64,000 nucleotides of DNA, taken from Chitinophagales bacterium (GTDB taxonomy: Bacteria; Bacteroidota; Bacteroidia; Chitinophagales; LD1). Below are positions 1 to 55,081 of the stretch, piece by piece (position 1 is the stretch's first letter; every line of letters starts with the position of its first letter). The notes under the pieces were generated by a model, which was not told the DNA's origin, ran no database searches, and saw only the letters and a program-made list of their open reading frames with translations. A program made the translations under genes and the position numbers. The stretch is from NCBI GenBank assembly GCA_035299425.1, contig DATGWP010000167.1, positions 17,155-81,154 of the forward strand, in the 5' to 3' direction.

Positions 1-1
1 G

Positions 2-2831: not shown

Positions 2832-2856
2832 AAGCCCTACAACCAAACCGGCAACG

Positions 2857-3588: not shown

Positions 3589-3594
3589 CCTGGC

Positions 3595-4539: not shown

Positions 4540-4567
4540 AGTGCTACAATTAAAACACAGCGCAGAC

Positions 4568-5389: not shown

Positions 5390-5443
5390 GGGCATTCCAA
5401 TAATTGACCGGCCAATTTTACGTGCCTTACTATACCTGTTGTT

Positions 5444-8580: not shown

Positions 8581-8585
8581 AAAAG

Positions 8586-9503: not shown

Positions 9504-9575
9504 ACTATCTATTTAACCAAGTGCTTGGCGATAAGCGCCACAAATTTACTTTTGCTGCACGCTCAGGGGCCTGTT

Positions 9576-10730: not shown

Positions 10731-12011
10731 CTATCCCACTAAAGCCATCACATCATTTACAAAATTTTGATTATTAACCTGAGCGTTGTACTTAGCATTC
10801 CAGGTACAGAAAGCATTTTTACGCAGCACGTTCTTTTGAGCCACCGGTAAGGCATTAAATTTCTCGATGGCTATTTTAACCTCGGCGCTATCGGGGTATG
10901 GTGATAATAAAAATCCATTTACACCGTGCTCTACAATCTCTGCCACGCCGCCCACATTTGTGCCTATTAGCGGCACGCTATAACTCATAGCCTCCATCAT
11001 AGAAACAGGAATCCCTTCTGTTTCACTCACGTTTAAATGCAAATCGAACGGCCTTTCTGCATACAAGTTAAATAAATCTTCCTTGCTTGTTTTGCCGGTA
11101 AAGCGGTAAGAAATATTGCTTTTACCACCAAGCTTATTGGCCGCATACTTCTGTACTTCTATAAAATCAGCTTCGTTGTGATTGCTGTGTCCTACATGAA
11201 CCCACTCTATTTTTGCATCACCCATCAGGGCAAGGGTATCTACTATAAGGTCAATTCTCTTTAGCTTTTGTATATAGCCCACACTTATTATCCGCAGCGT
11301 TTCGTCGGTACGTTGCTCAATAAAATTTGTGGGCGATTCTATGCCAATTCGGCTGATAGCTGTTTTCTGCATTTTATCTGTATCAAAATGGTGAGCCCTG
11401 GCAAAATAGTCGCGTGCATTCGCAGATATAAAATAGATTTTATCCATCTGGCTGAAAATAAACTGACGGAAAGGATGATACTTAACAGGGCTACGGTCAA
11501 AATACACATCTAAAGAATGGGCCCGCGTTATAGTTTTCACTTGAGAGTGTTGTTGTTTCAGCAGGGCAGATGCAAAACTGCTTTCTATCATCCAGTAAGA
11601 ATAAATCAGAAGATTATTCGTATCAATATTTTGCTCAAGTATTACCTGTTGCAAAAAACGCTTTGTTGTTATTGAGCGGGAGTAAAAAGCTAAAACCTCT
11701 TTTAACAGCCCGAAAGAGATCTTTTGTTTGTAAACAAAAAATAATCTAAAAATCTCCTGGCAGAACATTGGCTTAAAAACCAATAGCAACAAACTTACGA
11801 ACGAACTACGTTTCTCAAAAGGAGTGAACCGGTAAACTACAGCATTAGGCGGCGTAGGCCTTCTTTCCTCTGAAAAGGTGTTATTGGTTATAACAATAAC
11901 CTTTTCGAAGCTTTGGGACAGCAGGTCAATTTCTTTATCCAGGTAGCTATCTGATATATGAAAGGGATAGTGCAGTGAGAAAAAAATGATAGATTTGCCC
12001 TTGCTATTCAT
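10731..12011 (-). CDS. Glycosyltransferase family 4, antisense to the surrounding operon; paralog of 12609-13892
   Basis: TRAHSLDVY, KLKRIDLI, NVSETEGIPVSMMEAMSYSVPLIGTNVGGVAEIV. Confidence 0.88.
   Translation of the reverse strand: MNSKGKSIIFFSLHYPFHISDSYLDKEIDLLSQSFEKVIVITNNTFSEERRPTPPNAVVYRFTPFEKRSSFVSLLLLVFKPMFCQEIFRLFFVYKQKISFGLLKEVLAFYSRSITTKRFLQQVILEQNIDTNNLLIYSYWMIESSFASALLKQQHSQVKTITRAHSLDVYFDRSPVKYHPFRQFIFSQMDKIYFISANARDYFARAHHFDTDKMQKTAISRIGIESPTNFIEQRTDETLRIISVGYIQKLKRIDLIVDTLALMGDAKIEWVHVGHSNHNEADFIEVQKYAANKLGGKSNISYRFTGKTSKEDLFNLYAERPFDLHLNVSETEGIPVSMMEAMSYSVPLIGTNVGGVAEIVEHGVNGFLLSPYPDSAEVKIAIEKFNALPVAQKNVLRKNAFCTWNAKYNAQVNNQNFVNDVMALVG
11990..11997 (+). promoter_or_regulatory. 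Candidate Bacteroidota sigma-A -7 element (TAGATTTG) for the acyltransferase, lying inside the 5' end of the antisense GT4
   Basis: Exact TAnnTTTG match 25 nt upstream of ATG 12023. No matching -33 TTTG found. Confidence 0.45.
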
Positions 12012-12022
12012 ACTCAGCTAAT

Positions 12023-12619
12023 ATGAAATTAATCAACAGAATAAAAAACAAAATTAAGTACGAGTTTTTGCGTATGATAAAGCCGGAGATTATCTCTTAC
12101 CCTGGCAGTGATGCGGATGACCCCCTTAAAAAAAAGCGTTTCAGCAATTTCAGCCACATTTCTAAACCAGAAAATGTAAGCATTGGCGATAGTGTTTTTA
12201 TAGGTCACTACAACTATATAGATGGGTTTGAAAAAATTGAGATTGGCGAACGCTGCCAGATTACAAATTTCATAAGTATACTTACGCACTCTTCACATAA
12301 TTCTATCCGTCTGTATGGCCCTAAGTATGTTGCCAATTGGGGAACTAAGATGAAAGGCCTGCAATATGGCGAAGTAAAAATCGGGGCTTATACATTTATT
12401 GGGTCGCACTGCATTATCCTTCCCGGCACCGTATTGGGTAAAGGTTGCCTGGTAAGTGCCTATAGCCTGGTAAAAGGCCAGTTTCCTGATTACTCTGTTT
12501 TAAGGGGCATACCTGCTGTGGTAGTAGGCGACACGCGTAAGATGGATGAAAAATTACTGGCCGAATTTCCTGAACTAGAAGAGATGTATTATCATAAAAA
12601 TCTAACAACTAAAGGGTAA
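12023..12619 (+). CDS. Hexapeptide-repeat (left-handed beta-helix) O/N-acyltransferase
   Basis: VSIGDSVFIG, IEIGERCQI, VKIGAYTFIGSHCIILPGTVLGKGCLVSA, GIPAVVV. Confidence 0.88.
   Translation: MKLINRIKNKIKYEFLRMIKPEIISYPGSDADDPLKKKRFSNFSHISKPENVSIGDSVFIGHYNYIDGFEKIEIGERCQITNFISILTHSSHNSIRLYGPKYVANWGTKMKGLQYGEVKIGAYTFIGSHCIILPGTVLGKGCLVSAYSLVKGQFPDYSVLRGIPAVVVGDTRKMDEKLLAEFPELEEMYYHKNLTTKG
12049..12056 (-). promoter_or_regulatory. Candidate -7 element (TAATTTTG on minus strand) for GT4 10731-12011, lying inside the acyltransferase gene
   Basis: Plus-strand CAAAATTA is an exact TAnnTTTG match on the minus strand, 37 nt upstream of the ATG at 12011. Confidence 0.4.
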
Positions 12620-13892
12620 GCATCTTCTCAATTAGCGCAGCGCTGTTTCTATCTGCATCAAATTTTTCCTGCCAGGTTTTACGTGCCTGTTTAACCAGTT
12701 CTTCTTTACGTGCTAAGGGTAAATTGTACCAAGCGCGTATACTATCTGCTACCTGTTGTTCATTTATATCAACAGGTAGTAAAAACCCGTTTTCAGCATC
12801 TTGTATTATTTCGGGCACACCACCTACACTTGTGCCTATCACAGGCACCCCAAATGACAAAGCCTCCATCATTGAAACCGGAGTTCCTTCAGTAGTGCTT
12901 AAATTTATCAGCAAATTTATTTTGCGCTCAGGATAAAGTTCAAACAATTCCTCGCGGGTAACCCGGCCCAAAAATTCATAGCTAAGATTTTTTTTATGGC
13001 CCAGGTATTCTTCTGCCAGCGCTTTTAATGCAGGAAAACGCCCTGTGCCATAATCATCGCCCACGTGTATCCATTCAATTTCTATATCGTTTATCAGTGC
13101 CAGTGCTTTTATGAGTAGGTCTATCCTCTTTAGAGGTTGTATCCAGGCATTACTAAGAACTACAACGCGGTTAAAATTCTGCTTATAAGGTTTTAATGCG
13201 CATTGCGAGCCTATGCGGTTTACTATGCCCTTTTGCTGAAATGGTTTGCTGATATGATGTTGCGAAAAAAAGTACTGTCGCCCTTGCTCAGAAATGAAAG
13301 CAAACAAATCGCTCTTTAAGTAAACATAGCGCCGAAAGGGATGGTAGTGTTCGGGAACCCTATCAAAATACAGATCCAGGCTATGTGTCCGCACTACAGT
13401 TTTTAAAGGGTATTTTTTTTTTATCAATGTTGATGCGAGAGCATATTCAAAATTCCAGTAAGAATATACCCAAACATCGTGCGTAGTAAAATCCACAGAG
13501 CTTAAAAGCTTATCAAGAAACTTTTCCACTTTTACAGCCTTTGCAGCATAAGCTGCAATGGCTTTTAGCAAATCCAAGTTTAATGAGCGGCCATATACAC
13601 TTTTGAGCGCCTTTATTTCATTGCGAAAGAAACTGCGTGCCATAACCAGAGGCAACAACAGTTTATCTAAGGTTGATATATCTAACCGGAGATTATGCAC
13701 CATCACATTATTGGCTACTTCTACCTGCCCATTATGATCGGTACTCATTGAAATCACGATTACGGAATCAAAATTACGGCTAAGCTCTTCCACCTCACTT
13801 AACAAATAGGCATCATATAACACCTTGTTATGTGTTTTAGGATAAAATAATGTAAAAAAGAATGCTATTCTTTTTTTGCTATGTTTGTCCAT
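12609..13892 (-). CDS. Glycosyltransferase family 4, antisense; paralog of 10731-12011 (ORF track GTG start 13898)
   Basis: VRTHSLDLY, PLKRIDLL, NLSTTEGTPVSMMEALSFGVPVIGTSVGGVPEII. Confidence 0.88.
   Translation of the reverse strand: MDKHSKKRIAFFFTLFYPKTHNKVLYDAYLLSEVEELSRNFDSVIVISMSTDHNGQVEVANNVMVHNLRLDISTLDKLLLPLVMARSFFRNEIKALKSVYGRSLNLDLLKAIAAYAAKAVKVEKFLDKLLSSVDFTTHDVWVYSYWNFEYALASTLIKKKYPLKTVVRTHSLDLYFDRVPEHYHPFRRYVYLKSDLFAFISEQGRQYFFSQHHISKPFQQKGIVNRIGSQCALKPYKQNFNRVVVLSNAWIQPLKRIDLLIKALALINDIEIEWIHVGDDYGTGRFPALKALAEEYLGHKKNLSYEFLGRVTREELFELYPERKINLLINLSTTEGTPVSMMEALSFGVPVIGTSVGGVPEIIQDAENGFLLPVDINEQQVADSIRAWYNLPLARKEELVKQARKTWQEKFDADRNSAALIEKMLTL
13880..13887 (+). promoter_or_regulatory. 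Candidate -7 element (TATGTTTG) for methyltransferase 13911, inside the first codons of the antisense GT4
   Basis: Exact TAnnTTTG match 23 nt upstream of ATG 13911. Confidence 0.45.
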
Positions 13893-13910
13893 ACCCACGC
13901 AATATATAAA

Positions 13911-14723
13911 ATGACTGTATTTGTTAGAAAACTCGTAAACAAAATAGCTTCTGTGCTATTAAATAATCCGGCCACTAACTGGATTTTGATTGCCACCGGC
14001 TACGACTATTTACCCAAGGTTGTATTGCAAAAAAACAATTATCAAACACGAAAATACCTGGATGCGCTAACCCCGCATGAAAATGTGGGCTACTCGCTTA
14101 GGCCCGAAATACAGAAGCTTGTAAATGGTGCCCAGAGTAAATTAAAAAAATTTGCAAATGAGCACCTACTGCCGGGCCAGGCAATTTTAGATATAGGTTG
14201 CGGTGCGGGGTTATATTTAAAAGAATTTAATGATGCACCCTTTGAACTGTATGGTATAGATTTAAATGAAGCTTTTTTAGCTCAGGCAAAAGCAGTGGCG
14301 CCCAAAGCCCACTTGGTTAACGCAAACTATATAACCGGCTTTAATGCACCCCGCAAGTTTGACTTAATATGCAGTTTTAGCGTAACTATGTATATAGAGC
14401 CTTCGCGGATGAAGCTTTTTTTTGACAAAATGTATAACGACCTGAACCCCGGCGGGTATATATTTATTCAATATAGCCAGGCTATGCTATTTAGCGACCT
14501 GTTTTATCCTGAGCTTACTTACATTAAATACTCGCCGCACCGCATAGATAAACTGGCAGCGCAAAAATTTATTACTGTAAAACACGAGCACTTTTACCAT
14601 GGGCATAAGGCCAAATGGTACGATGGCAAGCATTATTACTTTCCCGATGGCACCAATACACGGTTGGATACCTTGGAAAATAGCTTTCTTTTGGTGCTTC
14701 AAAAACCAGGCAATGCGAGTTAG
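13911..14723 (+). CDS. Class I SAM-dependent methyltransferase (ORF track start 13881)
   Basis: ILDIGCGAG, YGIDLNE, FDLICSF, LNPGGYIFI. ATG preceded by A-rich AATATATAAA. Confidence 0.85.
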   Translation: MTVFVRKLVNKIASVLLNNPATNWILIATGYDYLPKVVLQKNNYQTRKYLDALTPHENVGYSLRPEIQKLVNGAQSKLKKFANEHLLPGQAILDIGCGAGLYLKEFNDAPFELYGIDLNEAFLAQAKAVAPKAHLVNANYITGFNAPRKFDLICSFSVTMYIEPSRMKLFFDKMYNDLNPGGYIFIQYSQAMLFSDLFYPELTYIKYSPHRIDKLAAQKFITVKHEHFYHGHKAKWYDGKHYYFPDGTNTRLDTLENSFLLVLQKPGNAS

Positions 14724-15708
14724 TATTTTACAAGAAGAATTATCAAAAGAGGCTCTTCGAAAATTACCTTTCCCCTTTTGTAAAGAATATGCTGATTTTG
14801 AGAAAGGAAGAGGATTTAGCTACTACATTCTTTCTGACGAAAAGAAAGAAATATTTATACCATTAAAAGTTTCGAAAAGACAAATTTTTTATGTCGCCAT
14901 ATTTACCCATGCACCGGTTAAAATTAATGATGATTTAAGCCCTGTAGAGGAAAAAGAATTTATATCTGCAGCTGCTGATTTATGCGCCAAGCAGCTTAAA
15001 TGCATCCGTATAGAACCGGGCTCTACCATATCGGCCTATCATGCTTTTCCTGACAATGCTACAGCCGTAGAACTAGGCATTTTCAGCATCAATTTGCTGC
15101 GTACAGAAGAAGAAATATTTGCCGATTTTAATCCCAAATACCGCACACAAATACGTAAAGCAGAAAGCCAGGGAATAGATGTACGATACGGCAGGAATGA
15201 AATTGGCGCCTTTTACGAGTGCTATGCCCATACGCATGACAGACAAGGCGCAGCCCATGAAAATCTCGCTTTTTTTGAGGATATGTATGATGCCTTGGGC
15301 GAGGATAAGACTATTTGCTGTACCGCTTATGCAAATGGCATGCTGGAATCAGGGACATTTATTGTATTTAACGATTATGCCGGATACTATATGTATGCGG
15401 GATCGGCAGAAAAAACGCTAATGAAGGGTAGTACCCGCAAAATATTATGGGAGTGCATGAAAGTGATGAAACAACGGGGAAGTGCAAAATTTGTATTAGG
15501 CGGTGCACGCTATAAAAATGTAGAAGGCACTAAATTTGAGCAGATACAGGATTTTAAGCGTCGGTTTGGAGCAGAAATTAAAGATGGTTATATCTGGAAA
15601 AAAGATTTGAACCCAGCTATGTGCAAGCTATATGATTTCTTATTTTGGCTCAGATGTCGGTTAAGGGGAAATGAGGTACCAAAGGATATTGTTGACAGTC
15701 AATTGTAA
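14713..15708 (+). CDS. FemAB/FemX-like GNAT-fold aminoacyl/acyl-transferase (VimA-like candidate)
   Basis: INLLRTEEEIFADFNPKYRTQIRKAESQG (Fem-type helix motif), YYMYAGS, FVLGG, FKRRFG. ATG 14713 overlaps the upstream stop. Confidence 0.72.
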   Translation: MRVSILQEELSKEALRKLPFPFCKEYADFEKGRGFSYYILSDEKKEIFIPLKVSKRQIFYVAIFTHAPVKINDDLSPVEEKEFISAAADLCAKQLKCIRIEPGSTISAYHAFPDNATAVELGIFSINLLRTEEEIFADFNPKYRTQIRKAESQGIDVRYGRNEIGAFYECYAHTHDRQGAAHENLAFFEDMYDALGEDKTICCTAYANGMLESGTFIVFNDYAGYYMYAGSAEKTLMKGSTRKILWECMKVMKQRGSAKFVLGGARYKNVEGTKFEQIQDFKRRFGAEIKDGYIWKKDLNPAMCKLYDFLFWLRCRLRGNEVPKDIVDSQL

Positions 15709-15710
15709 TT

Positions 15711-16748
15711 GTGAAGAAAACTCTGCTGCTCACATTTGATTATGAGCTATACCTGGGCGCCAATAGTGGCTCTGCCCAAAACTGTTCGATACTGCCTACC
15801 AATAAAATATTAGATATTTTGGGCAAGTATAAATGCACCGGTGTGTTTTTTATAGATAGCCTGTACCTGGTGCGGCTTAAAGAGGAAGTAGGCAGACAGC
15901 CTGCTGCACAAAAAGATTTTGACAGCGTTTTGGCACAAATACAGCGCATGGTGCGTGATGGCCATTTGGTTTACAACCACTTACACCCGCACTGGCTGGA
16001 TGCAAAATACGATGCCATCAGCAACACCTGGAACCTGGCGGATAAAAGTAAATTTGCCTTAAGCAATCTCAACCCCGCCGAACAGGATTATGTATTTGAT
16101 AGCAGCATGCAGCTGCTGTATAATATAATTAAACCGGTTAATCCCGATTATAAAATAAACGGCTACCGTGCTGGTGGTTTTTTTATTCAGCCATTTGAAA
16201 TTTTTAAGCGGCAGTTTATAAAGTATGGTATAAAATATGAGTTTAGTGTGCAGGCCGGCGCAAAATGCTCTGGACCCAACAACAGTTACTCATTTGACTA
16301 TACATCTACACCGGATAAAAGTTTTTATAATTTTGAAGACAAAGTTATACTGGAAAACCCCAACGGGCAATTTGTGCAATTTCCACTGCGCGAGTGCCGG
16401 GTAGAGGGTTGGCGCAAAATATATTCGGGGCTCCACTACAGGTTAACCTCACGCTATAAATACTACCAGCGCTATGGCGATGGCCTGCCATCGGGCAACC
16501 AGATAACTTTTGAAAAAGCCGGCATAAAAAGCCGCTTTAGCCACACCGAAGGCTTTAGCATAGAAAGCATGAATTCAGTAAAAATTGATTATTACATGCA
16601 GGAACTGGAAAATCACAATCACCTGCACATTATATCGCACCCGAAGCTGATATCGGATTATACACTTGATGTATTGGATAAGTTTCTGGCCCGCGTCACC
16701 AATAAATTTGAAATTATAACCCATCCGGCGTTAATTGCAGGGCAATAG
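15711..16748 (+). CDS. Polysaccharide deacetylase (CE4/NodB-like; VimE-like candidate)
   Basis: LLTFDYELY (TFD motif), NHLHPHW metal-binding His motif, GYRAGGF, IISHPK. Confidence 0.8.
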   Translation: MKKTLLLTFDYELYLGANSGSAQNCSILPTNKILDILGKYKCTGVFFIDSLYLVRLKEEVGRQPAAQKDFDSVLAQIQRMVRDGHLVYNHLHPHWLDAKYDAISNTWNLADKSKFALSNLNPAEQDYVFDSSMQLLYNIIKPVNPDYKINGYRAGGFFIQPFEIFKRQFIKYGIKYEFSVQAGAKCSGPNNSYSFDYTSTPDKSFYNFEDKVILENPNGQFVQFPLRECRVEGWRKIYSGLHYRLTSRYKYYQRYGDGLPSGNQITFEKAGIKSRFSHTEGFSIESMNSVKIDYYMQELENHNHLHIISHPKLISDYTLDVLDKFLARVTNKFEIITHPALIAGQ

Positions 16749-16753
16749 CCATT

Positions 16754-18046
16754 ATGCAAAAGGTATTGATAATTGCGTATTTCTTTCCACCGTGTAACCT
16801 TACTGCATCGGCCCGGCCGGCCGCATGGGCCAAATACCTCGGCCAGTTTGGCTACTATCCTATTGTAATTACCCGCAATTGGGATATTGCCATCAATAAG
16901 CCATCGGATATTTCGAAAACATCGGGCGAGGCTGAAAAGAAAGTGGAGAATGAACAAAGTACGGTGTATTACCTGCCTTATAAAGCATCGCTGAAGGACA
17001 AAATATACGCTGAGCATGGCGATAATAGATACCGTTTGCTACGCAAGGCACTTTCGTTTTTAGAGGTATTGTTTCAAAATTTCTTTTTGAGTGTAGTGCC
17101 TTTCAGCAATTTTTATGATAAAGCTGTTGAATTGGTTGAAAAAAATAAGGACTTAAACCGGGTGGTGATAACCGCTAATCCCTTTGTATCCTTTTTTATA
17201 GGCTACCGGTTGAAGACAAAATTTCCGCATATAAAATGGGTGGCTGACTACCGCGACGACTGGAGCACCAGCGATATAAATGTGCGCGAAAACAAGTTGG
17301 CAGAATTCATATTTAAGCTGGAGAACCGTAGTGAGAAAAAATGGGTGGGCACGGCAGCTATCATTACCACCATTTCTTCCTTTTATGCGCACAAGATATC
17401 GAAGTATGTTGGCGTAAAGGCTACAACCCTTTTGAATGGTTTTACCGAAGACGATTTAGCCAAAGTAAAAGACACCTCGCAACCCGGCGAGTTAAACATA
17501 ACCTACAACGGCACCTTATACCCCACACAAAATATTGAGCCTTTTTTACAAGGGTTTAAAAAAGCCGTAGATACATACGGCAACAGACTTAAATGCAAAT
17601 TGTATTTTCCAGGGCTGGCTTATTATGCCGAGCAGGCCAACCGCGTGCGCAGCAATATGCAGGGTTATGAAAATACGCTGGAGATAACCGAGCGCATACC
17701 CCGCGCTCAGGTATTTGATATACAAAACCGCTCGCATGCCTTTTTAATGGTATCGCACAATGGCATTAAAGGTATACCCAGCAGCAAGTTGTACGAATAT
17801 TTATGTTTCAGGAAACCTGTAATATTGTGCCCTAATGATGGCGATATTGTAGAAGAAACCCTGAACGACACCAACACCGGTATAATTTGTAATACGGCAG
17901 AGGATGTGTTTAAGGGTATAAGCCTGCTGGCAGAAGATATTTTGAAAAACGGCAGGGTTACCGCTGTGGCCAACGACGAACGTGTAATGAGCTATTCGAG
18001 AAAAAACCAGGCCAAAGTGCTGGCAGAAATACTAAACGGATTATGA
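16754..18046 (+). CDS. Glycosyltransferase family 4-like
   Basis: VLIIAYFFPP, WVADYRDDW, ITYNGTLY, IPSSKLYEYL. Confidence 0.8.
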   Translation: MQKVLIIAYFFPPCNLTASARPAAWAKYLGQFGYYPIVITRNWDIAINKPSDISKTSGEAEKKVENEQSTVYYLPYKASLKDKIYAEHGDNRYRLLRKALSFLEVLFQNFFLSVVPFSNFYDKAVELVEKNKDLNRVVITANPFVSFFIGYRLKTKFPHIKWVADYRDDWSTSDINVRENKLAEFIFKLENRSEKKWVGTAAIITTISSFYAHKISKYVGVKATTLLNGFTEDDLAKVKDTSQPGELNITYNGTLYPTQNIEPFLQGFKKAVDTYGNRLKCKLYFPGLAYYAEQANRVRSNMQGYENTLEITERIPRAQVFDIQNRSHAFLMVSHNGIKGIPSSKLYEYLCFRKPVILCPNDGDIVEETLNDTNTGIICNTAEDVFKGISLLAEDILKNGRVTAVANDERVMSYSRKNQAKVLAEILNGL

Positions 18047-19137
18047 AAAAAATACTGGCCTGTGTAGGCACCCGCCCAAATTTTATTAAGATAGTAAAGC
18101 TGGAAAAGCTATTTGCCGAAGCGGGATTTGAATACCGCATACTGCACACCGGCCAGCATTTCGACCAAAAGATGAGCGATGTATTCTTCCACCAGCTTAA
18201 GCTGCGCAAACCCGACTACTATTTAGGTATAGGCGGTGGCAGCAACAATGAGGTAGTGGGTAAAATAATAGTAGAAACAGAAAAAATATTACTGGAGTAT
18301 AAGCCAGACATACTGATAGTGCCCGGCGATGTAAACTCAACCTTTGCCTGTGCCTTTGCGGCAGCATCGCTGCGGATACCAGTAGGCCACATAGAGAGCG
18401 GCCTGCGCAGCGGCGATATGGATATGCCCGAAGAACGCAACCGGATATTGACTGACTCTTTATCGGACTTATTATTTGTAACCGAACCGGTAGGGGTTGA
18501 CTTTTTGCGCAAGGCCGGTGTAGACGAAAAGAAAATAAAACTGGTAGGTAACACTATAGTAGATGCACTAACAGAAATGCTGCCGGTAGTAGATGATTGT
18601 AAAGTGCTGGATGAACTTGGTGTAGCCAAACCATATGCGGTTGTTACCTTCCACCGTCCCGTAAACGTAGATGACGAAAAGAACCTGGGTATAATAGTAG
18701 ATGCATTGGCGCGCATATCGGTAATGATGCAAGTGGTGTTCCCTATACATCCGCGCACATTAAAAAGACTGGAGGCAACAGGATTAAAAAGCAAAATAGA
18801 TAACCCCAACATTAAACTGACAGAACCTCTAGGCTATATTGAGTTTTTGAAACTGATGAAAGAAAGCGTTTGTATCATCAGCGATTCCGGCGGGGTGCAG
18901 ATAGAATCGAGCTATTTTAACATACCGTGCTTTACCGTACGCGATACTACTGAGCTGAAGATAACCATAGAAGAAGGTACCAACCGGCTAATGGAGCTGG
19001 ATGCAGCTAAAATTGCAGCCGAAGTAAAACAGGTAATTGACAAACCCAACACCCCGCCCAAACAGCCATGGCTGTGGGATGGCAAGGCCTCTGAGCGCAT
19101 TGTAGAAGAGGTAAAGAGTTTTTTAATCGGGCGATAA
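18043..19137 (+). CDS. wecB: UDP-N-acetylglucosamine 2-epimerase, non-hydrolysing (WecB/WbpI family)
   Basis: GTRPNFIK, HTGQH, GDVNS, HIESGLRS, MPEERNR, SDSGGVQIE. Confidence 0.92.
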   Translation: MKKILACVGTRPNFIKIVKLEKLFAEAGFEYRILHTGQHFDQKMSDVFFHQLKLRKPDYYLGIGGGSNNEVVGKIIVETEKILLEYKPDILIVPGDVNSTFACAFAAASLRIPVGHIESGLRSGDMDMPEERNRILTDSLSDLLFVTEPVGVDFLRKAGVDEKKIKLVGNTIVDALTEMLPVVDDCKVLDELGVAKPYAVVTFHRPVNVDDEKNLGIIVDALARISVMMQVVFPIHPRTLKRLEATGLKSKIDNPNIKLTEPLGYIEFLKLMKESVCIISDSGGVQIESSYFNIPCFTVRDTTELKITIEEGTNRLMELDAAKIAAEVKQVIDKPNTPPKQPWLWDGKASERIVEEVKSFLIGR

Positions 19138-19164
19138 AGTTATTTTTGGGGATATTTGAGAGGG

Positions 19165-20130
19165 ATGAAAAACTTTGTTCTGATTGGTGCTTCGGGCTAT
19201 ATAGCTCCCCGCCATTTAAAAGCCGTAAAAGATACCGGTAACCAGCTACTAGCCGCCTACGATCCGTTTGACAGCGTGGGTATAATGGATAGCTATTTTC
19301 CTAACGCCGATTTTTTTGTAGAGTTTGAGCGGTTCGACAGGCACGTAGATAAGCTAAAGCGAAAAGACATACCGCTTGATTATGTGTCTATATGCTCGCC
19401 TAACTACCTGCACGATTCGCACATACGCTTTGGCCTGCGCAATGGTGCCGATGTGATTTGCGAAAAGCCGCTGGTGCTTAACCCGTGGAATGCGCAAAGC
19501 CTGATAGACCTGGAAAAAGAAACCGGCAAGCACATTAACAACATATTGCAGCTACGCCTGCACCCCAACATTATAGCGCTAAAGAAAAAAGTAGACGAAA
19601 GCCCGAAGGATAAAATTTTCGATTTCGACTTAACCTATATCACCTCGCGCGGTAACTGGTACTACACCAGCTGGAAAGGCGATGTAAGCAAAAGCGGTGG
19701 CATAGCCACCAACATAGGCATTCACTTTTTCGATATGCTTACCTGGATATTTGGCGCTGTAAAAACCAATATTGTGCATGTGCATACTCATGACCGCGCA
19801 GCCGGTTATTTAGAGTTTGAAAAAGCAAGGGTGCGTTGGTTTTTAAGCATCAATGCAGATACATTGCCCGATGCTGCCAAACAAAAAAACATGCGCACTT
19901 ACCGCAGTATGAACCTGGAGGGCCAGGAAATTGAATTCAGCGATGGATTTACCGACCTGCACACCGCCAGCTATACCGAAATAATTAAAGGGAACGGCTT
20001 TACGGTAAAAGATGCCATGCCGAGTATTGAAATAGCATACACCATACGTAAAGAAACACCGGTGGGGCTTAAAGGCGATTATCACCCGTTTGCAAAAACA
20101 CCGGGTGGCAATCATCCTTTCCATGTTTAA
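19165..20130 (+). CDS. wbpB: UDP-N-acetylglucosaminuronate 3-dehydrogenase (WbpB/WlbA, Gfo/Idh/MocA family)
   Basis: KNFVLIGASGYIAPRHLKAVKDTGN, YDPFDSVG, SICSPNYLHDSH, CEKPLVLNPW, SGGIATNIGIHFFD closely follow the WbpB pattern. Confidence 0.88.
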   Translation: MKNFVLIGASGYIAPRHLKAVKDTGNQLLAAYDPFDSVGIMDSYFPNADFFVEFERFDRHVDKLKRKDIPLDYVSICSPNYLHDSHIRFGLRNGADVICEKPLVLNPWNAQSLIDLEKETGKHINNILQLRLHPNIIALKKKVDESPKDKIFDFDLTYITSRGNWYYTSWKGDVSKSGGIATNIGIHFFDMLTWIFGAVKTNIVHVHTHDRAAGYLEFEKARVRWFLSINADTLPDAAKQKNMRTYRSMNLEGQEIEFSDGFTDLHTASYTEIIKGNGFTVKDAMPSIEIAYTIRKETPVGLKGDYHPFAKTPGGNHPFHV

Positions 20131-20169
20131 ATTGTTGTTTGGTGTTTCACCTATAAGTTTTGAATAAGC

Positions 20170-22020
20170 ATGTGCGGAATAACCGGGTATTACTCCCCAT
20201 CTAGAAAAATAAACGAAGCCGACCTGCACCGGATGACGGACTGCATCAGCCACCGAGGGCCGGATGCTGCAGGTTACTTTTTTGATGATGCAAAAACCAT
20301 AGGCCTGGGGCACCGCCGTTTAAGTATTATAGATTTAAGCGAGGCTGCCAACCAGCCTTTTTACTCGCATAGCGGCCGGTATGTTACCGTATTTAACGGC
20401 GAGGTTTACAATTTTCAGGAAATAGCTAAGCAGTTAAACATTACCCAGCGCACCAGCAGCGATACCGAAATAATAATAGAGGCCTTTGAAAAAAAGGGAG
20501 TTGATTTTGTGCACTTACTCAATGGCATGTTTGCCATTGCTATATGGGATAAACAAGACCATAAGCTTTATCTTTTCCGCGACCGGTTGGGCGTAAAACC
20601 TTTATACTATTATCATAAAGATGGTGAGTTTGCCTTTGGCTCAGAGATTAAAGCGCTGCTAAAGATTGATGAAGTAGCCAACTATGCTAAGCCGGATAAC
20701 AAAACTATTTACACGTTTTTATATTGCGGCTATGTGCCTGAACCGTTTACGGGCTTTAGCCATATACGCCGTTTACCTGCCGGTAGCTTTGCAGTTGTAG
20801 ATGCGAATGGCATAAACATTAAAAACTATTGGAAACCCGAAGAGAAGGTCACCCCTCGGGTTGAAACAGATTTCAAATCGGCGAAAGAAGAGCTTAAAAA
20901 CCTGCTGGTATCATCGGTAAAATACCGGATGATAGCCGATGTGCCATTCGGTACCTTTTTAAGCGGTGGTATAGATAGCAGCACGGTTACAGCTATAGCC
21001 CAAAGCATTAGCAGCAAACCGGTAAAAACTTTCTCTATAGGGTTTAAGGAAGCAAAGTTTAACGAGAGCGAGTACGCTAAAAAAGTGTCGAAACACTTAG
21101 GCACCGAGCATTATGAATTTATTGTAACCGAGGCGGACGCTATGGGGCTTATAGACCGAATGCTGAATGCATACGATGATTTGTATTCAGAGTCATCGGG
21201 CATACCTACCATGCTGGTATCTAAACTAGCAAGGCAACATGTAACCATGACCCTGAGCGGCGATGGTGGTGATGAATTGTTTATGGGTTATGGCTCGTAC
21301 GACTGGGCAAAGCGGTTAAACAATCCGCTGGTAAAAATGCTGCGTAAGCCTGGTGCCGCATTATTATCGATGGCTGGTGGAAAATATAGGCGCGCAGCCG
21401 GAGTAATCAACTACAAAAGCGAAAAGCATTTAAAAAGCCATATCTTTTCGCAAGAGGAATACTACTTTAACGAGAGTGAGTTAGACAGTTTATTAAAGCC
21501 TGAATTAAAAACCCAATTGCTGTTTGACGAGCATTTGAATACCGCCCGCCAACTATCGCCGGCAGAAGAACAAGCCTTGTTTGATATTAAATATTACCTG
21601 AAAGACACTCTGCTTACCAAAGTAGATATAGCCAGTATGCAATACTCGCTGGAGACACGCACACCGTTTTTAGATTACCGGGTGGTAGAGTTTGCGCTCA
21701 ATCTTTCGGAAGATTTGAAGAAGAAAGACGGCACTGCTAAATACCTGCTAAAAGAAGTGCTGTACGATTATGTACCGCGCCAGTTTTTTGATAGGCCTAA
21801 ATGGGGCTTTTCTATTCCGCTAGGCAAATGGCTGCTTACCGATCTGCACTACCTGCTGGATAAATACCTGAGCGAAGAAACCGTGACCCAATGCAATGTG
21901 GTAAACTACAGCGTAGTAAAAAGCCTGCTTCAGCGATTTAAAAACGGCGAAGACTATTTGTTTAAGCGCATCTGGATATTGATAATCCTTCACCATTGGT
22001 TACTTAAATATAAGGGATGA
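20170..22020 (+). CDS. asnB: Asparagine synthase (glutamine-hydrolysing)-like amidotransferase (polysaccharide-associated, WbpS-like)
   Basis: N-terminal MCGITG (Ntn Cys), HRGPD, HRRLSIID, LSGGIDSS, LSGDGGDE, RPKWGF. Confidence 0.92.
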   Translation: MCGITGYYSPSRKINEADLHRMTDCISHRGPDAAGYFFDDAKTIGLGHRRLSIIDLSEAANQPFYSHSGRYVTVFNGEVYNFQEIAKQLNITQRTSSDTEIIIEAFEKKGVDFVHLLNGMFAIAIWDKQDHKLYLFRDRLGVKPLYYYHKDGEFAFGSEIKALLKIDEVANYAKPDNKTIYTFLYCGYVPEPFTGFSHIRRLPAGSFAVVDANGINIKNYWKPEEKVTPRVETDFKSAKEELKNLLVSSVKYRMIADVPFGTFLSGGIDSSTVTAIAQSISSKPVKTFSIGFKEAKFNESEYAKKVSKHLGTEHYEFIVTEADAMGLIDRMLNAYDDLYSESSGIPTMLVSKLARQHVTMTLSGDGGDELFMGYGSYDWAKRLNNPLVKMLRKPGAALLSMAGGKYRRAAGVINYKSEKHLKSHIFSQEEYYFNESELDSLLKPELKTQLLFDEHLNTARQLSPAEEQALFDIKYYLKDTLLTKVDIASMQYSLETRTPFLDYRVVEFALNLSEDLKKKDGTAKYLLKEVLYDYVPRQFFDRPKWGFSIPLGKWLLTDLHYLLDKYLSEETVTQCNVVNYSVVKSLLQRFKNGEDYLFKRIWILIILHHWLLKYKG

Positions 22021-23249
22021 CCGAAGTACTTTACATGAGTTACGACGGCATGACCGACCCGCTGGGCCAAAGCCAGGTTATTCCGTATATCAAAGGACTG
22101 TCTAAACTCGGTTATCATTTCACCCTTATTAGTTTTGAGAAGAAAGACCGTCTTGAAAAATTCGGGGCAGTTATAGCAGCGCTGCTAAAAGACAACAACA
22201 TCGATTGGGTGCCGCTATCTTACACCAAAAGCCCGCCGGTACTTTCTACTATTTACGATACCTGGCGTATGCGCAGGAAGGCGTTTGAGTTACATAGCCG
22301 AAAGAAATTCAGCATAGTGCATTGCCGCAGTTACATTTCGGCACTGGTGGGGCTGGCCATGAAAAAGAAGTTTGGCACAAAGTTCATTTTTGATATGCGC
22401 GGTTTTTATGCCGATGAACGGGTAGATGGCGGCCTGTGGAAGTTAGATAGCCCGCTTTACAAAATGGTGTATGACTTTTTTAAGCGGAAGGAAGTTGAGT
22501 TTTTAACCCATGCCGACCATACTATCAGCCTGACTGAAAACGGCAAGCGTATTATTCATTCGTGGGCGCACATACCCAACCAACCCGTACCTATACAGGT
22601 AATACCCTGCTGTGCCGACCTGGATAAATTTAGTCCCGAAAGTGTAGACCATAGCAAATTACAAGCGCTTAAAAATGAACTGGGCATAAAGCCCGATGAC
22701 TTTGTAATAAGCTACCTGGGCAGTGTAGGCACCTGGTATATGCTGGATGAAATGCTTGCCTTTTTTAAATGCCTGCTGGAGAAAAAACCTCAGGCCAGGT
22801 TTCTGTTTATTACCAACGAGCCGGCCGAACTGGTGCTGAGCAAAGCGCGCGAATTGCAGATTGCCGCTGATAGGTTTATCATAACCCCATCGCCAAGCCC
22901 ACTGGTGCCAACTTATTTGTCGCTCTCCTCCATATCCTTTTTCTTTATCAAGCCTGTGTTTAGCAAGCAGGCTTCCTCTCCTACCAAGCAGGGCGAAATA
23001 ATGGGCATGGGCATACCCTACATTTGCAACACCGGTGTGGGCGATGTAGATGAAATTGTTAAAGACACCCGCTCGGGCTACCTTGTAGACCATTTTACCG
23101 TAGAAGACTACCGTAAAACTATTAATACTATACTTACTACTACCCTGAATGCCAACGAAATAAGGCAAGGGGCCTTCAAATATTACTCGCTGACTAAAGG
23201 AGTAGACAACTACAATAATGTTTATTGCAAACTTCTTGCAAAAACATAG
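22017..23249 (+). CDS. Glycosyltransferase family 4
   Basis: YDGMTDPLGQSQV, HCRSY, FDMRGF, SPTKQGEIMGMGIP. Confidence 0.85.
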   Translation: MTEVLYMSYDGMTDPLGQSQVIPYIKGLSKLGYHFTLISFEKKDRLEKFGAVIAALLKDNNIDWVPLSYTKSPPVLSTIYDTWRMRRKAFELHSRKKFSIVHCRSYISALVGLAMKKKFGTKFIFDMRGFYADERVDGGLWKLDSPLYKMVYDFFKRKEVEFLTHADHTISLTENGKRIIHSWAHIPNQPVPIQVIPCCADLDKFSPESVDHSKLQALKNELGIKPDDFVISYLGSVGTWYMLDEMLAFFKCLLEKKPQARFLFITNEPAELVLSKARELQIAADRFIITPSPSPLVPTYLSLSSISFFFIKPVFSKQASSPTKQGEIMGMGIPYICNTGVGDVDEIVKDTRSGYLVDHFTVEDYRKTINTILTTTLNANEIRQGAFKYYSLTKGVDNYNNVYCKLLAKT

Positions 23250-23360: not shown

Positions 23361-26300
23361 ATGAGAAAAACACTACTTCTTGCTTTTGTTTTAGGCTTAA
23401 CCACTACCCTGTTTGCGCAGGAATACCGCCTGGTATGGCCTAAACAGGATTATGTATTCGATTCTACCGTAGTTAACTTTCAGTGGAGTGTGGTAGACAA
23501 TGCTACCAGCTACGAGCTTCAGTATTCGGATAACGACCCTACTTTCGGGGTAGCTTCGCTTATTTCAGCTTCAGGTACTTCTTACCAAACTACGCTAACT
23601 GCCCGTAAAACTTATTATTGGCGTGTTAGAGCTATTACCAATCAGGGTACACAAGCGTGGTCATATGCCCGCAGGTTCTACATTTTCGAGCCCCCCCAAA
23701 AAAATGGTTTGCTATTATGGTTCGAGGCTAACAGAAATGTAACAGCACCAGGCGGCGCGGTATCTGAGTGGGTTGACCGCTCAGCCTCTATTACAGCTAC
23801 ACAAACTGCAGCTAACAAACCTACCTTTACGCCCAATGTAACCCAGCTTAAAGGCAAGCCCGTAGTTAGCTTCGCCGGGGGCACCAGCAACCCTCAGATG
23901 ATGACTTTCCCAAGTGTTACTATTGACTACGGTACAAATGGTGGATACACCTGTCTGGCTGTACGCAACTACAACAGCAACCCCGGTACTTACCTGCAAT
24001 ACTTTTTAGGTGGGCCTAGCGGTGTTGAGGCCAACGGGTTTGTAGCAGATGCAAGCTATTACACAGGCTCTACAGGATGGGGAGCATATACAACTGTAGG
24101 AGGATACAATGGCCTTTATACTACTATCGGTGCAGATTTAACCAGCACCTATTCTATTTACACCGTTCAGCCCGAGCAATTAACCCGCAATGGTATTGCC
24201 CGGCCAACAGGAACCAATAATGAGGCTGGGTCGAACGCAAAATCGAATTTCCTGTTAGGTACTTTAGGCCGAACAGCAACCGGTATTGGTCAATTCTTCT
24301 CTTATAAAGGCAACTTAGCCGAGGTTATAGTTTATGACAATACTCTTGATACTACCTCAAGAGTATTAGCCGAGCAATACCTACGCTACAAATATGCAAA
24401 CCCGGTTAACATGGGTCCCGATACAATTTTTCCAAGCTTTTGCGTAAATACAACATTAACCCCGGGGCCCGGCTTTTTTGTCAAGCTTAAATGGTTTGAT
24501 GGAGATAGCACCTCTACCACTAAAACAGTAACCAGCGTAGGCAAATATTGGGTAGAAGGTACTGATATATTTGGTTACAAATCTTATGATACCATTAATG
24601 TAAGGCCACAGATTTTCTTTAACCAGTTGCCTCCGGTAGCGTTTCTTTGTTCCGGCGATTCGCTGGTATGGAACACCGGCTACCCGGCCAATGGCTTTAC
24701 ATTCGATTGGTCTAACGGCGAGTCAACACCAAGCATAGCTATAAAAACAGGTGGCACCTATTCTGTTACTATTGCAGATAATGCCAACTCTACCTGCCAG
24801 TTGCAATCGAGTGCAGTGGTGGTTACGGTAGATACTTTCCCCGATTATACACTCGGTGCCGATACCTCTTTCTGTGCTGGTAACCGGTTGAATTTTCTGC
24901 ATACCGATTCACTACTTTCTATTGTATGGTCTACCGGCGATACAATTCGCGAGACGGCTATAAGCACACCAGGCAACTATTCGGTTGTTGCAGTAAATGC
25001 CAACCAGTGTGTAAACTACGATACCATTGGTGTATTAATCCGTGGTATTGCACCTTCTATTTATTTCAGCAACCCTGTACTGTGCGCTACCGATACTATA
25101 CAGTTTATAGACTCAAGCATTCCGCCAGGGGTGCCTATCAGCTATTGGCAGTGGAACTTTGGCGATGGCGATACCAGCAACCTGCAAAACCCAACTCATG
25201 TCTACGCTACCCCCGGCACATATACAGTTTCGCTTACTGCTACTACCGACTCGGGTTGTGTAAACAGCCTTACCAAACAGTTGCCAGCCTACCTTAAGCC
25301 GGTAAGCCTGTTCCAATCACGCGTATCGTGCGCTACAGCCGAAACACAGTTTTATGATCTTAGTTCTACAGCCCTGCCTGCATTACTTCAAACATGGAAA
25401 TGGAATTTTGGCGGTCTCGATTCCTCGATAGTGCCTAATCCTACGTTTGCTTTCCCTGCGCAAGGCAAATACGAGGTTACCTTACGCACCAGCAACGATA
25501 ATGGCTGCGTGAGCATCAAAAAAGATTCGGTAGAAGTATTTGCCGAGCTTGTGGCCGATTTTGCATTTAACCGGTTATGCCTGGGCGATACGGTTGCGTT
25601 TACCGATTTAACACCATCGTTCTCGTTGGTGTCGTGGCTATGGAACACGGGCGATGGCCGCTTCTTCACACAAAAGAACATCCGGAATAAATATGATGTA
25701 GCGGGCTCGTACCCTGTAACATTACAGATACAAAACGCCATTGGCTGTGTAGATGCTATTACCAAGACAGTAACCGTATACCCTAAACCCGATGCTGCCA
25801 TTGGCAATGGCCTGATATGCGAAGACCAATACTATACACCCGTAAACAATTCGGTAGTTACAGAACAAAACAATACCTGGAACTGGAATATCGCGGGCAA
25901 TAATTATACGGGGTTTGAACCGCAGCACTATTTTGGCGATACAGGTACTTACCCTATTAAACTACAGATTGTTTCGCAAAACGGATGTAAAGATTCTGCA
26001 AGCGGTATAGTATATGTGTCACCCATACCTGTAGCTAACTTTACATTTGTGCCGCTATATGGCGATGCCCCTTTGCTGGCTACCTTTACCAATACCAGCC
26101 AGAATGCCGATAACTACACCTGGAATTTTGGCGATGGTGTTACAGATAATACCACCAACCCTACCCACACCTATACTACCAACGATACTTTCCCTATACA
26201 GCTCGTGGCAATAAACGAAGTTGGTTGCTCGGATACTATAACCAAAAGTATAACTGTAGTCGTTACCGATTTGGATATATCTGTTGATAGGGTATACACC

Positions 26301-26861
26301 GATGAAGCTCCATTGCAGGATGGAACTGTTCTTGTTTCGGTATATGCCGATTTAAGCAATGTGGGCACGCGCCTGATAACCAATGCACGGCTGTATGCCA
26401 CTATAGGCAGTGGCGGGGTTATAAGCGAGGAATGGGATACTATATTCCAGTCTGGCCAGGCCAAGCAGTATAAATTTGAGGCAAATTTTGTAGTAGCGGC
26501 CGGCAGCGCCAATACTTATGTATGTGTAGAAGCCACCAGTGTAAACCATGGCGAAACAGAAACCCGCCTGGATAATAACAGGGAGTGCACATCGCTTACC
26601 GATGTTATACAATTAATCGGCCCATCTCCTAACCCGGCACGGGGCGATGCCTATCTTGGTATTATATTGCCAAAAGCCGGCAAAGTTACTATTGAAATAA
26701 TGGATATCTTAGGACAGCCAGTGCAGGAGATAACCGAGCTTAACCTGCCAGTAGGCCGAACAGATTTTGCGCTGCCTGTAAAAATGCTACGGGCATCGGA
26801 ATATTTTATCCGTATTAAGCATAATGACGACAAACTGGTGCGCAAACTGGTAGTGCATTAA
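23361..26861 (+). CDS. Secreted PKD-repeat surface protein with T9SS type-A C-terminal domain (FN3-like, LamG/ConA-like, PKD repeats, CARDB-like, CTD)
   Basis: Signal peptide MRKTLLLAFVLGLTTTLFAQ; repeated WNFGDG/WQWNFGDG PKD motifs; C-terminus PSPNPARG...EIMDILGQ...YFIRI...VRKLVVH. Confidence 0.85.
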   Translation: MRKTLLLAFVLGLTTTLFAQEYRLVWPKQDYVFDSTVVNFQWSVVDNATSYELQYSDNDPTFGVASLISASGTSYQTTLTARKTYYWRVRAITNQGTQAWSYARRFYIFEPPQKNGLLLWFEANRNVTAPGGAVSEWVDRSASITATQTAANKPTFTPNVTQLKGKPVVSFAGGTSNPQMMTFPSVTIDYGTNGGYTCLAVRNYNSNPGTYLQYFLGGPSGVEANGFVADASYYTGSTGWGAYTTVGGYNGLYTTIGADLTSTYSIYTVQPEQLTRNGIARPTGTNNEAGSNAKSNFLLGTLGRTATGIGQFFSYKGNLAEVIVYDNTLDTTSRVLAEQYLRYKYANPVNMGPDTIFPSFCVNTTLTPGPGFFVKLKWFDGDSTSTTKTVTSVGKYWVEGTDIFGYKSYDTINVRPQIFFNQLPPVAFLCSGDSLVWNTGYPANGFTFDWSNGESTPSIAIKTGGTYSVTIADNANSTCQLQSSAVVVTVDTFPDYTLGADTSFCAGNRLNFLHTDSLLSIVWSTGDTIRETAISTPGNYSVVAVNANQCVNYDTIGVLIRGIAPSIYFSNPVLCATDTIQFIDSSIPPGVPISYWQWNFGDGDTSNLQNPTHVYATPGTYTVSLTATTDSGCVNSLTKQLPAYLKPVSLFQSRVSCATAETQFYDLSSTALPALLQTWKWNFGGLDSSIVPNPTFAFPAQGKYEVTLRTSNDNGCVSIKKDSVEVFAELVADFAFNRLCLGDTVAFTDLTPSFSLVSWLWNTGDGRFFTQKNIRNKYDVAGSYPVTLQIQNAIGCVDAITKTVTVYPKPDAAIGNGLICEDQYYTPVNNSVVTEQNNTWNWNIAGNNYTGFEPQHYFGDTGTYPIKLQIVSQNGCKDSASGIVYVSPIPVANFTFVPLYGDAPLLATFTNTSQNADNYTWNFGDGVTDNTTNPTHTYTTNDTFPIQLVAINEVGCSDTITKSITVVVTDLDISVDRVYTDEAPLQDGTVLVSVYADLSNVGTRLITNARLYATIGSGGVISEEWDTIFQSGQAKQYKFEANFVVAAGSANTYVCVEATSVNHGETETRLDNNRECTSLTDVIQLIGPSPNPARGDAYLGIILPKAGKVTIEIMDILGQPVQEITELNLPVGRTDFALPVKMLRASEYFIRIKHNDDKLVRKLVVH

Positions 26862-26892: not shown

Positions 26893-26924
26893 AAAAAGAG
26901 GCGCTGCATGCAGCGCCTCTTTTT
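26893..26924. terminator. Bidirectional intrinsic terminator (perfect 32-bp palindrome)
   Basis: AAAAAGAGGCGCTGCA|TGCAGCGCCTCTTTTT, 31 nt after the PKD gene stop. Confidence 0.85.
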
Positions 26925-28628: not shown

Positions 28629-28641
28629 GGCGTATCTATAA

Positions 28642-49370: not shown

Positions 49371-49470
49371 AAAGAGGATGCAAATGTAAATTTTTGAGTT
49401 ACAAAATTTTATTCGCTGGCAATAATCAGCTGTTATATTTTCAAAAGAATTTAAAGACAGCCCTTTAATC

Positions 49471-49499
49471 AAAAAAGCCACGCAATGCGTGGCTTTTTT
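49471..49499. terminator. Bidirectional intrinsic terminator downstream of porV
   Basis: AAAAAAGCCACGC-AAT-GCGTGGCTTTTTT. Confidence 0.88.
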
Positions 49500-55002: not shown

Positions 55003-55081
55003 AAAAAAGGGATAAGCCGATTCAATCATTATTTTTGACGCTCTTAAAAACTATAAATAGCGCAATAAAACGCAGCCATTT

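Follow-up and report, generated by a model that had tools for sequence, protein, structure and literature searches.

What do the genes packed together at positions 13881-23249 of this stretch of DNA make, and does their product anchor secreted proteins? The stretch (the window hereafter; 64,000 nt, C167:17155-81154) belongs to a 4.9-Mb genome in 242 contigs that is 98% complete, whose sequence has been seen only in sediment, soil, and freshwater metagenomes and whose nearest named relatives are Chitinophagales metagenome-assembled genomes (MAGs). A sequence-only reading had taken the block for a single-locus Wbp/Vim-like pathway whose product is a candidate sugar for anchoring type IX secretion system (T9SS) cargo. 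We arrive at a different answer: the block is probably a module that tailors and transfers a single unusual residue, which belongs to a surface polysaccharide, large and variable, of the O-antigen or exopolysaccharide (EPS) type. Its predicted product, well supported by enzyme families and modeled folds, is an N-aminoacyl, N-acetyl diamino-mannuronamide-type sugar, possibly methylated. We favor this answer because of the enzyme identities and folds, the tight packing of the genes, their conservation in relatives, the recurrent FemAB-CE4 pairing, the glycosyltransferase-rich locus, and the allelic behavior of the block, and because aminoacyl-sugar chemistry has precedent (Veith 2020, PMC7468200). 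A role of the block in T9SS anchoring is unsupported, and we rate it as improbable. L-numbers below denote loci of relatives, G-numbers other genomes (G000 being the source genome), and C-numbers contigs.

Open reading frame calling places every gene of the block on the plus strand, neighboring genes being separated by -11 to +39 nt. The seven genes named in the sequence-only reading are all present, at the coordinates given there, and tightly packed, and domain searches agree with the labels given to them, with two qualifications: the matches of the CE4-like protein and of the first glycosyltransferase (GT) fall below threshold, and the GT4 label for the latter is tentative. A methyltransferase that had been left out is a conserved member of the block.

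13881-14723, + strand: S-adenosylmethionine-dependent methyltransferase (Methyltransf_25/11/23, ~1e-13), overlapping the start of the FemAB gene by 11 nt
14713-15708, + strand: probable FemAB-fold aminoacyl-tRNA-dependent aminoacyl transferase (PF02388, 6.9e-15; PF13480, 6e-8; TIGR03019, 2.9e-14)
15711-16748, + strand: predicted divergent CE4/NodB-fold de-N-acetylase (sub-threshold PF01522, 2.6e-4; fold of the predicted model)
16754-18046, + strand: 430-aa GT-B-type glycosyltransferase in the VimF position (weak, sub-threshold Glycos_transf_1 (GT1) match, 1e-4)
18043-19137, + strand: non-hydrolyzing UDP-HexNAc(A) 2-epimerase of the WecB/WbpI family (PF02350, 9.8e-95; TIGR00236, 1.5e-89)
19156-20130, + strand: WbpB, UDP-GlcNAcA 3-dehydrogenase of the MocA family (PDB 3OA2, 1.7e-112; 3O9Z, 5e-94)
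20170-22020, + strand: Gln-dependent AsnB-type amidotransferase, WbpS-like (TIGR03108, 3.7e-150; TIGR01536 above cut-off)
22017-23249, + strand: GT4 glycosyltransferase, last gene of the block (Glyco_transf_4, 6e-12; Glycos_transf_1, 5.6e-9)

For the FemAB-like protein, the start at 14713 is supported by the length of its close homologues, 331 aa in every case. The best NCBIfam match is TIGR03019 (the family that VimA is reported to match), far under its cut-off, and the model (predicted local distance difference test score, pLDDT, 93.5) has as its top 28 Foldseek matches only aminoacyl-tRNA-dependent transferases. These included Sbb17/Sba18, FemX, FemA, and MprF, with best template modeling (TM) scores of 0.66-0.77. 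The CE4-like protein, whose gene starts 2 nt after the FemAB gene, has invariant residues in the NodB-type motifs TFDYE, H-x-HPHW, RAGG-x-IQP, and SHPK across an alignment of 49 sequences, and these motifs hold the conserved Asp/His. Its AlphaFold model (pLDDT, 94.5) is closest in fold to 3RXZ, the Helicobacter pylori PgdA HP0310, ArnD, and Vibrio chitin de-N-acetylases, the Foldseek match to 3RXZ having an E value of 1.8e-7 and TM scores of 0.51/0.60. From folds and sequence families we infer that the first protein is an aminoacyl-tRNA-dependent transferase, VimA-like in function, and from the modeled fold that the second is a de-N-acetylase, VimE-like in function.

For the context of this pair, the CE4 alignment was run against a set in which each species is represented by a single genome, and 272 relatives were found; the best 80 loci, essentially all from environmental Bacteroidota, were analyzed, and locus counts given below refer to genes no more than 10 kb from CE4 in these 80. 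FemAB adjoins CE4 in 56/80, and the other recurrent neighbors are the epimerase (47/80), AsnB (28/80), a TviC-like short-chain dehydrogenase/reductase (SDR; 27/80), and the methyltransferase, which adjoins the FemAB/CE4 pair in 26/80. Homologues of the methyltransferase are 56-78% identical to it and keep its position in L052-L056 and L067-L069. The first GT, tentatively a GT4 by its sequence and presumed to transfer the modified sugar, lies directly 3' of the CE4 gene in 23/80 loci and is 59-94% identical in close relatives.

The remaining genes belong to better-known families. The 2-epimerase gene abuts wbpB, and its product is a clear family match (TIGR00236, 300.7 bits versus a cut-off of 210) for which WecB-type (UDP-GlcNAc) and WbpI-type specificity are inseparable by sequence. 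The best match of the dehydrogenase is Pseudomonas aeruginosa WbpB (3OA2), its next non-WbpB match reaching only 4e-9, and homology identifies it as a true WbpB. The amidotransferase (616 aa) has an intact N-terminal MCG and keeps the Cys2 nucleophile. The last GT4 is 72-82% identical in relatives, including those in which the 5' half of the block is swapped (see below).

The sequence-only reading would have fallen had the genome held neither wbpA nor wbpE; WbpE, WbpD, and a WbpA-class dehydrogenase were all found. The genome has six DegT genes, and WbpE is the one at C165:1816-3111 (minus strand), outside the window, with WbpE 3NYU/3NU7 as its top PDB matches (1.8e-106); it is flanked by divergent waaA, the gene for 3-deoxy-D-manno-octulosonic acid (Kdo) transferase, and a Ugd-like dehydrogenase. 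WbpD/WlbB is encoded at C118:922-1518 (minus strand; WlbB 3MQG, 4.5e-65; next match, 4.5e-38). Directly 3' of it lies a Cap5O/UDP-ManNAc-dehydrogenase-class gene split over C118/C26 (2.1e-51), followed by rfbB-like and TviC/WbpP-like genes. The WbpA role has two candidates, the Cap5O/TviB-like dehydrogenase by WbpD and the Ugd/TuaD-like one by WbpE, their specificity being unreadable from sequence. With WbpE, WbpD, and a WbpA-class dehydrogenase in this second locus, the 2,3-diacetamido uronic acid pathway appears complete and is split over at least two loci. Together with the window's WbpB, these enzymes could, as shown by homology, make UDP-2,3-diacetamido-2,3-dideoxy-glucuronic acid. The description of the pathway as a single locus was therefore wrong: there are at least two loci, the second of them beside waaA.

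The contig breaks of the second locus (C165, C118, C26) fall inside genes. C118 and C26 are joined on the strength of an 8-nt overlap across which the reading frame continues; no join of C118 to C165 by sequence overlap was found, and a UXS-like SDR gene split between these contigs suggests that they are neighbors. A hexapeptide protein in the window (12023-12619) was considered as WbpD and rejected, being a LacA/WbbJ-like O-acetyltransferase type.

Judged by family, fold, and gene neighborhood, the enzymes suggest the following route. The WecB/WbpI-family epimerase would convert the sugar from gluco to manno, and the WbpS-like Gln-dependent enzyme would amidate C6 to give a uronamide. The CE4-fold enzyme may remove one N-acetyl group, that at N-2 by analogy with VimE, and the FemAB-fold enzyme would re-acylate the freed amine with an amino acid from aminoacyl-tRNA. 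A methyl group, at a position that we leave unassigned, could be added by the adjacent methyltransferase, and the two GTs of the block would attach the residue to the glycan. As an exchangeable cassette, the 5' half (methyltransferase-FemAB-CE4-GT-epimerase) recurs in numerous glycan loci of environmental Bacteroidota, usually without WbpB; in the source lineage it appears to have been coupled to a Wbp 2,3-diamino pathway.

The distribution of the block supports both its integrity and its variability. A search of 5.8 billion proteins for FemAB relatives returned nine close ones at 57-83% identity, and their contigs repeat the full array gene for gene, upstream GTs included, with the gene for a PKD-repeat protein bearing a T9SS C-terminal domain (CTD) also present in L052, L055, and L056. 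The arrangement is not due to chance: relatives with a FemAB protein of 58-64% identity carry the block with every gene in place. L054 has kept only methyltransferase-FemAB-CE4-GT-epimerase. A true WbpB lies near CE4 in only 4/80 loci (L070-L072 and L074), and these close relatives differ from the window as follows: the 3' genes are close (WbpB 88-92%, WbpS 71-75%, and last GT4 72-75% identical), and the 5' genes are distant (FemAB 27-33%, CE4 41-44%, GT 38-41%, and epimerase 49-51% identical). Judged by these identities, a divergent allele has taken the place of the 5' half, with the breakpoint between the epimerase and WbpB genes. FemAB, CE4, 2-epimerase, and AsnB occur together in 17/80 loci, and the pairing of epimerase and amidotransferase is therefore not peculiar to the window.

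Within the source genus (36 other species sampled), the CE4 marker was found in 9/36, in two allele classes, and was missing from 27/36; many congeners without the cassette are at least 95% complete. In a class-wide sample of 401 evenly drawn genomes, the CE4 family occurs in 53/401 (13%) and in 0/12 other genomes of the source order. We regard the cassette as behaving like a variable surface-glycan module because it is accessory, has two alleles, is swapped in its 5' half, and does not always keep the cargo gene.

Three observations concern variants of these loci. In L052 (17305-19043) and L053 (12408-14146), genes for a further Polysacc_deac_1 deacetylase and for a formyltransferase are inserted between AsnB and the last GT4, and this gene content suggests a variant in which the same or a neighboring residue is first deacetylated and then formylated. 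CE4-like or FemAB-like domains also lie inside longer frames (L059 6666-8729, G196:C38:307171-308199, and G109:C13:122164-122631), one of them a 687-aa CE4-GT2 fusion and the two others 785 and 748 aa long; on their sequences, such frames suggest fused tailoring and transfer steps. L136 and L145 carry a typical Bacteroidota cassette in MAGs labeled Bifidobacterium and are probably mislabeled or mis-binned.

Several points weigh against the module and product that we propose. Which substrate the CE4/FemAB pair uses, which position is acylated, and with which amino acid are all matters of prediction. The best family of the AsnB-type amidotransferase, TIGR03108 (which holds WbpS and WbqG), is matched at 501.6 bits, below its cut-off of 816.9. 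WbpB occurs in 27/401 class-sample genomes, and the CE4 family in only 1/27 of these, the window's own genome. The FemAB/CE4 pair may therefore act on a different amino sugar even in the source lineage. Finally, the analysis turned up neither Wzx, Wzy, and WaaL nor an initiating transferase, so that the glycan could be a lipopolysaccharide (LPS), an EPS, or a protein glycan.

Some of these points feed the alternative that survives best, which we still consider unlikely: that the block serves two residues, its cassette aminoacylating a 2-amino uronic acid or other amino sugar (e.g., epimerase-made ManNAcA) and its WbpB feeding a separate diacetamido-uronic residue. Related loci without a true WbpB within reach of CE4 (76/80), the retention of methyltransferase-FemAB-CE4-GT-epimerase alone in L054, and the different evolutionary histories of the 5' and 3' halves all agree with it, as does the fact that no other CE4-positive class-sample genome has WbpB anywhere. 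Against this, the halves abut and are co-directional in the source lineage, with gaps of 18 and 39 nt; they stay joined under either 5' allele (L052, L055, and L070-L074); and the canonical Wbp/Vim pathway makes exactly such a coupling.

To weigh the proposed link to T9SS, the surroundings of the block are needed. The block belongs to a very large, GT-rich glycan locus, over 45 kb long, and makes up its 3' part.

1-13898, no strand assigned: upstream part of the glycan locus (at least nine glycosyltransferases, SDR, formyltransferase, methyltransferase, LacA/WbbJ-type O-acetyltransferase)
23361-26861, + strand: secreted PKD-repeat protein with T9SS type-A CTD (PKD_4, 3.3e-52; Por_Secre_tail TIGR04183, 30.4 bits versus 23)
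27507-29640, - strand: pair of a GT4 and a GalE/TviC-like SDR, with homologues directly 3' of the block in other loci
49526-50926, - strand: porV (NF033710, 420 bits)
51139-55029, - strand: porU (NF033707, 1300 bits)

The upstream array is also present in L052, L055, and L056. It includes a dTDP-4-amino-4,6-dideoxyglucose formyltransferase (2857-3588; NF005755, 295.8 bits versus a cut-off of 238), from which the same glycan would be expected to contain an N-formylated 4-amino-6-deoxy sugar. At 10731-13898, a pair of GT4 paralogues read from the minus strand alternates with plus-strand genes, almost without spacing, an arrangement kept in L052, L053, L055, and L056. The contig upstream of the window (C167:1-17154; L020) carries a nonulosonic-acid pathway (NeuB, CMP-cytidylyltransferase, PIG-L deacetylase, ATP-grasp, a formyltransferase-like gene, and an MptE/Maf-like protein) along with more GTs, methyltransferases, and a DegT aminotransferase.

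The PKD-repeat gene starts at a real ATG (23361) and encodes a signal peptide. No terminator separates it from the last GT4 gene, and a terminator with a 14-bp stem stands 3' of it (26893-26924). A sigma-70 promoter scan, which does not extend to Bacteroidota promoters, was uninformative (36 sites versus 35 expected). A purN-like gene follows, and then the GT4 and SDR on the other strand. Because homologues of this GT4/SDR pair directly follow the last GT4 of the block in Flavobacteriales loci (L073, L078, and L081), the cargo gene looks embedded in the glycan locus, which extends to either side of it. It is syntenic in L052, L055, L056, and L074, and absent from L070-L072, where a membrane protein and more glycan genes come after the block. 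The PKD protein is a neighbor of the block, not shown to belong to its system. Farther on, porV, porU, a porP/sprF gene, and gldJ occupy 49.5-57.8 kb. The sequence-only reading was correct that a T9SS cargo gene directly follows the block and that porV-porU lie 26 kb away; the intervening stretch holds collagen-like, patatin-like, response regulator, and secreted-protein genes unrelated to the block. Directly downstream of porV is the gene for a 669-aa protein (47472-49481, minus strand) with a sub-threshold PurF/Gln-amidotransferase match (TIGR01134, 2.7e-35; 122.6 bits versus 350).

Could the aminoacyl-mannuronamide be the T9SS linking sugar, carried in a glycan that PorZ delivers and amide-bonded by PorU, through its free aminoacyl amine, to the newly formed C terminus of type-A CTD cargo, e.g., the neighboring PKD protein? 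We consider this improbable, although it has real attractions. Like chemistry anchors cargo in Porphyromonas gingivalis and Tannerella forsythia (PMC7468200, PMC13086638), literature that the sequence-only reading had summarized accurately. Besides PorU and PorV, the genome encodes a true PorZ, the anionic LPS (A-LPS) delivery protein (NF052228, 561.6 bits versus a cut-off of 260); the FemAB gene is single copy, and no exosortase was found. The synteny of a type-A CTD gene behind the block, with no terminator between, also speaks for it. In addition, the CE4 family occurs only in PorU-positive genomes of the class sample (53/381 versus 0/20), a weak association resting on few PorU-negative genomes (one-sided p = 0.054, uncorrected for phylogeny).

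The distribution of the block argues the other way. PorU is present in 381/401 class-sample genomes, and co-occurrence with it is uninformative because it is nearly everywhere. The CE4 family is absent from 328/381 PorU-positive genomes, and TIGR03019-like FemAB genes (102/401) are equally frequent with and without PorU (98/381 versus 4/20; p = 0.79). An anchoring component of T9SS would be expected to be conserved across the lineage, and the cassette is not: 9/36 congeners and none of the 12 genomes from the rest of the order have it. Its 5' module is swapped among close relatives, whereas P. gingivalis strains show strict conservation of their vim genes (PMC8003790). The cargo gene does not follow the block in L070-L072, and unrelated genes fill the 26 kb up to porV. 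Moreover, linking sugars vary by species, that of Prevotella intermedia being an N-alanyl-deoxyhexose in an organism without WbpB, WbpD, VimA, and VimE (PMC11969387), so no particular sugar is expected. The T9SS link drawn in the sequence-only reading is not supported, given this combination of unrelated intervening genes, patchy presence in the genus, an exchanged 5' half, and a ubiquitous PorU.

That the aminoacyl sugar instead serves exosortase-sorted proteins, as part of a PEP-CTERM-type EPS system, is very hard to credit, since the best NCBIfam matches of FemAB, AsnB, and the GT4s (TIGR03019, TIGR03108, TIGR04063, and TIGR03088) are all XrtA/PEP-CTERM-associated but lie far under their curated cut-offs, and a search of the whole 98%-complete source genome with PF09721 (E <= 0.01) gave no match, on which ground such a system was rejected for this genome.

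The surface-polysaccharide module remains our preferred reading. A bolder version of the anchoring idea, which we rate as doubtful, is that the aminoacyl-diamino-mannuronamide is the acceptor delivered by PorZ and used by PorU and that cassette exchange re-specifies the anchor (its amino acid and decoration) between relatives. If true, free-living Bacteroidota would swap their T9SS linking sugar horizontally, much like a serotype. For the question of how cargo of the T9SS is tethered in bacteria other than the oral pathogens, a cassette fused to an apparently complete Wbp pathway is a concrete candidate. Our analysis also defines a recurrent environmental cassette (FemAB and CE4, with or without methyltransferase, GT, 2-epimerase, and AsnB), and its distribution warns that a FemAB/CE4/AsnB block near a CTD gene need not be a T9SS anchor pathway. 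The evolution of the cassette resembles O-antigen diversity, and by analogy the pattern of 5' swapping resembles that of serotype-determining loci.

[quoted passage not shown] (2020, 2026), which uses the same enzyme classes (WbpA/B/E/D, WbpI-like epimerase, VimE, VimA, WbpS, and VimF) in the same logic: a diacetamido uronic acid, CE4 deacetylation, FemAB/GNAT-fold aminoacylation, optional epimerization and amidation, and an adjacent GT. At the level of families and folds, the block does encode Wbp/Vim-like chemistry, as the sequence-only reading held. PorU, PorV, and PorZ are common to both. The gene order resembles vimA-vimE-vimF and is closer still to BFO_2568-BFO_2565 of T. forsythia, a contiguous vimA/(vimE)/epimerase/vimF set with vimA as BFO_2568, the epimerase as BFO_2566, and vimF as BFO_2565. 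In the current view, VimF attaches the aminoacyl sugar, which becomes the distal residue of a linker, built on undecaprenyl diphosphate, that caps the O-polysaccharide. The likeness of the window's FemAB, CE4, and GT proteins to VimA, VimE, and VimF is shown at the level of family and fold rather than of orthology. A profile built on FemAB matched 21 of 5.8 billion proteins, none from Porphyromonas or Tannerella, and the FemAB neighborhoods in nine WbpB-positive genomes (G206, G173, and seven more) include no CE4 or epimerase partner. The window further differs in that its CE4 family is an environmental Bacteroidota family, otherwise without WbpB in the class sample; in having both an epimerase and an amidotransferase, of which P. 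gingivalis has just the latter and T. forsythia just the former; and in a cassette that includes a methyltransferase and is accessory and allelic in its genus.

The UDP-ManNAc3NAcA pathway of P. aeruginosa O5 and Bordetella pertussis band A (WbpA-B-E-D-I/WlbA-D) shares clear orthologues of WbpB (1.7e-112), WbpE (1.8e-106), and WbpD/WlbB (4.5e-65) with the source genome, as well as a WecB/WbpI-family 2-epimerase adjoining WbpB. It differs in that the source genes lie in two loci, are extended by CE4, FemAB, and AsnB steps, and leave the WbpA role ambiguous; the P. aeruginosa and B. pertussis pathway has no protein-anchoring role. With transferases of the FemX/Sbb17 type, the window's FemAB protein shares the fold (TM scores of 0.66-0.77), the tandem Gcn5-related N-acetyltransferase (GNAT) architecture, and the lack of a FemA coiled-coil insert. 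Sbb17 and Sba18 aminoacylate an amino sugar, as proposed for the window's protein, whose identity to this group is 13-17% and whose presumed acceptor, rather than lipid II or streptothrisamine, is an amino-uronic sugar linked to a nucleotide or a lipid. The amidotransferase resembles WbpS/WbqG as a 616-aa Gln-hydrolyzing AsnB homologue with Cys2 and with TIGR03108 as its best family; it differs in its score below the family cut-off, and uronamide formation by it is predicted. The Wbp/Vim chemistry itself is known; what is new here is an exchangeable environmental FemAB-CE4 cassette joined to the Wbp pathway in one Chitinophagales lineage.

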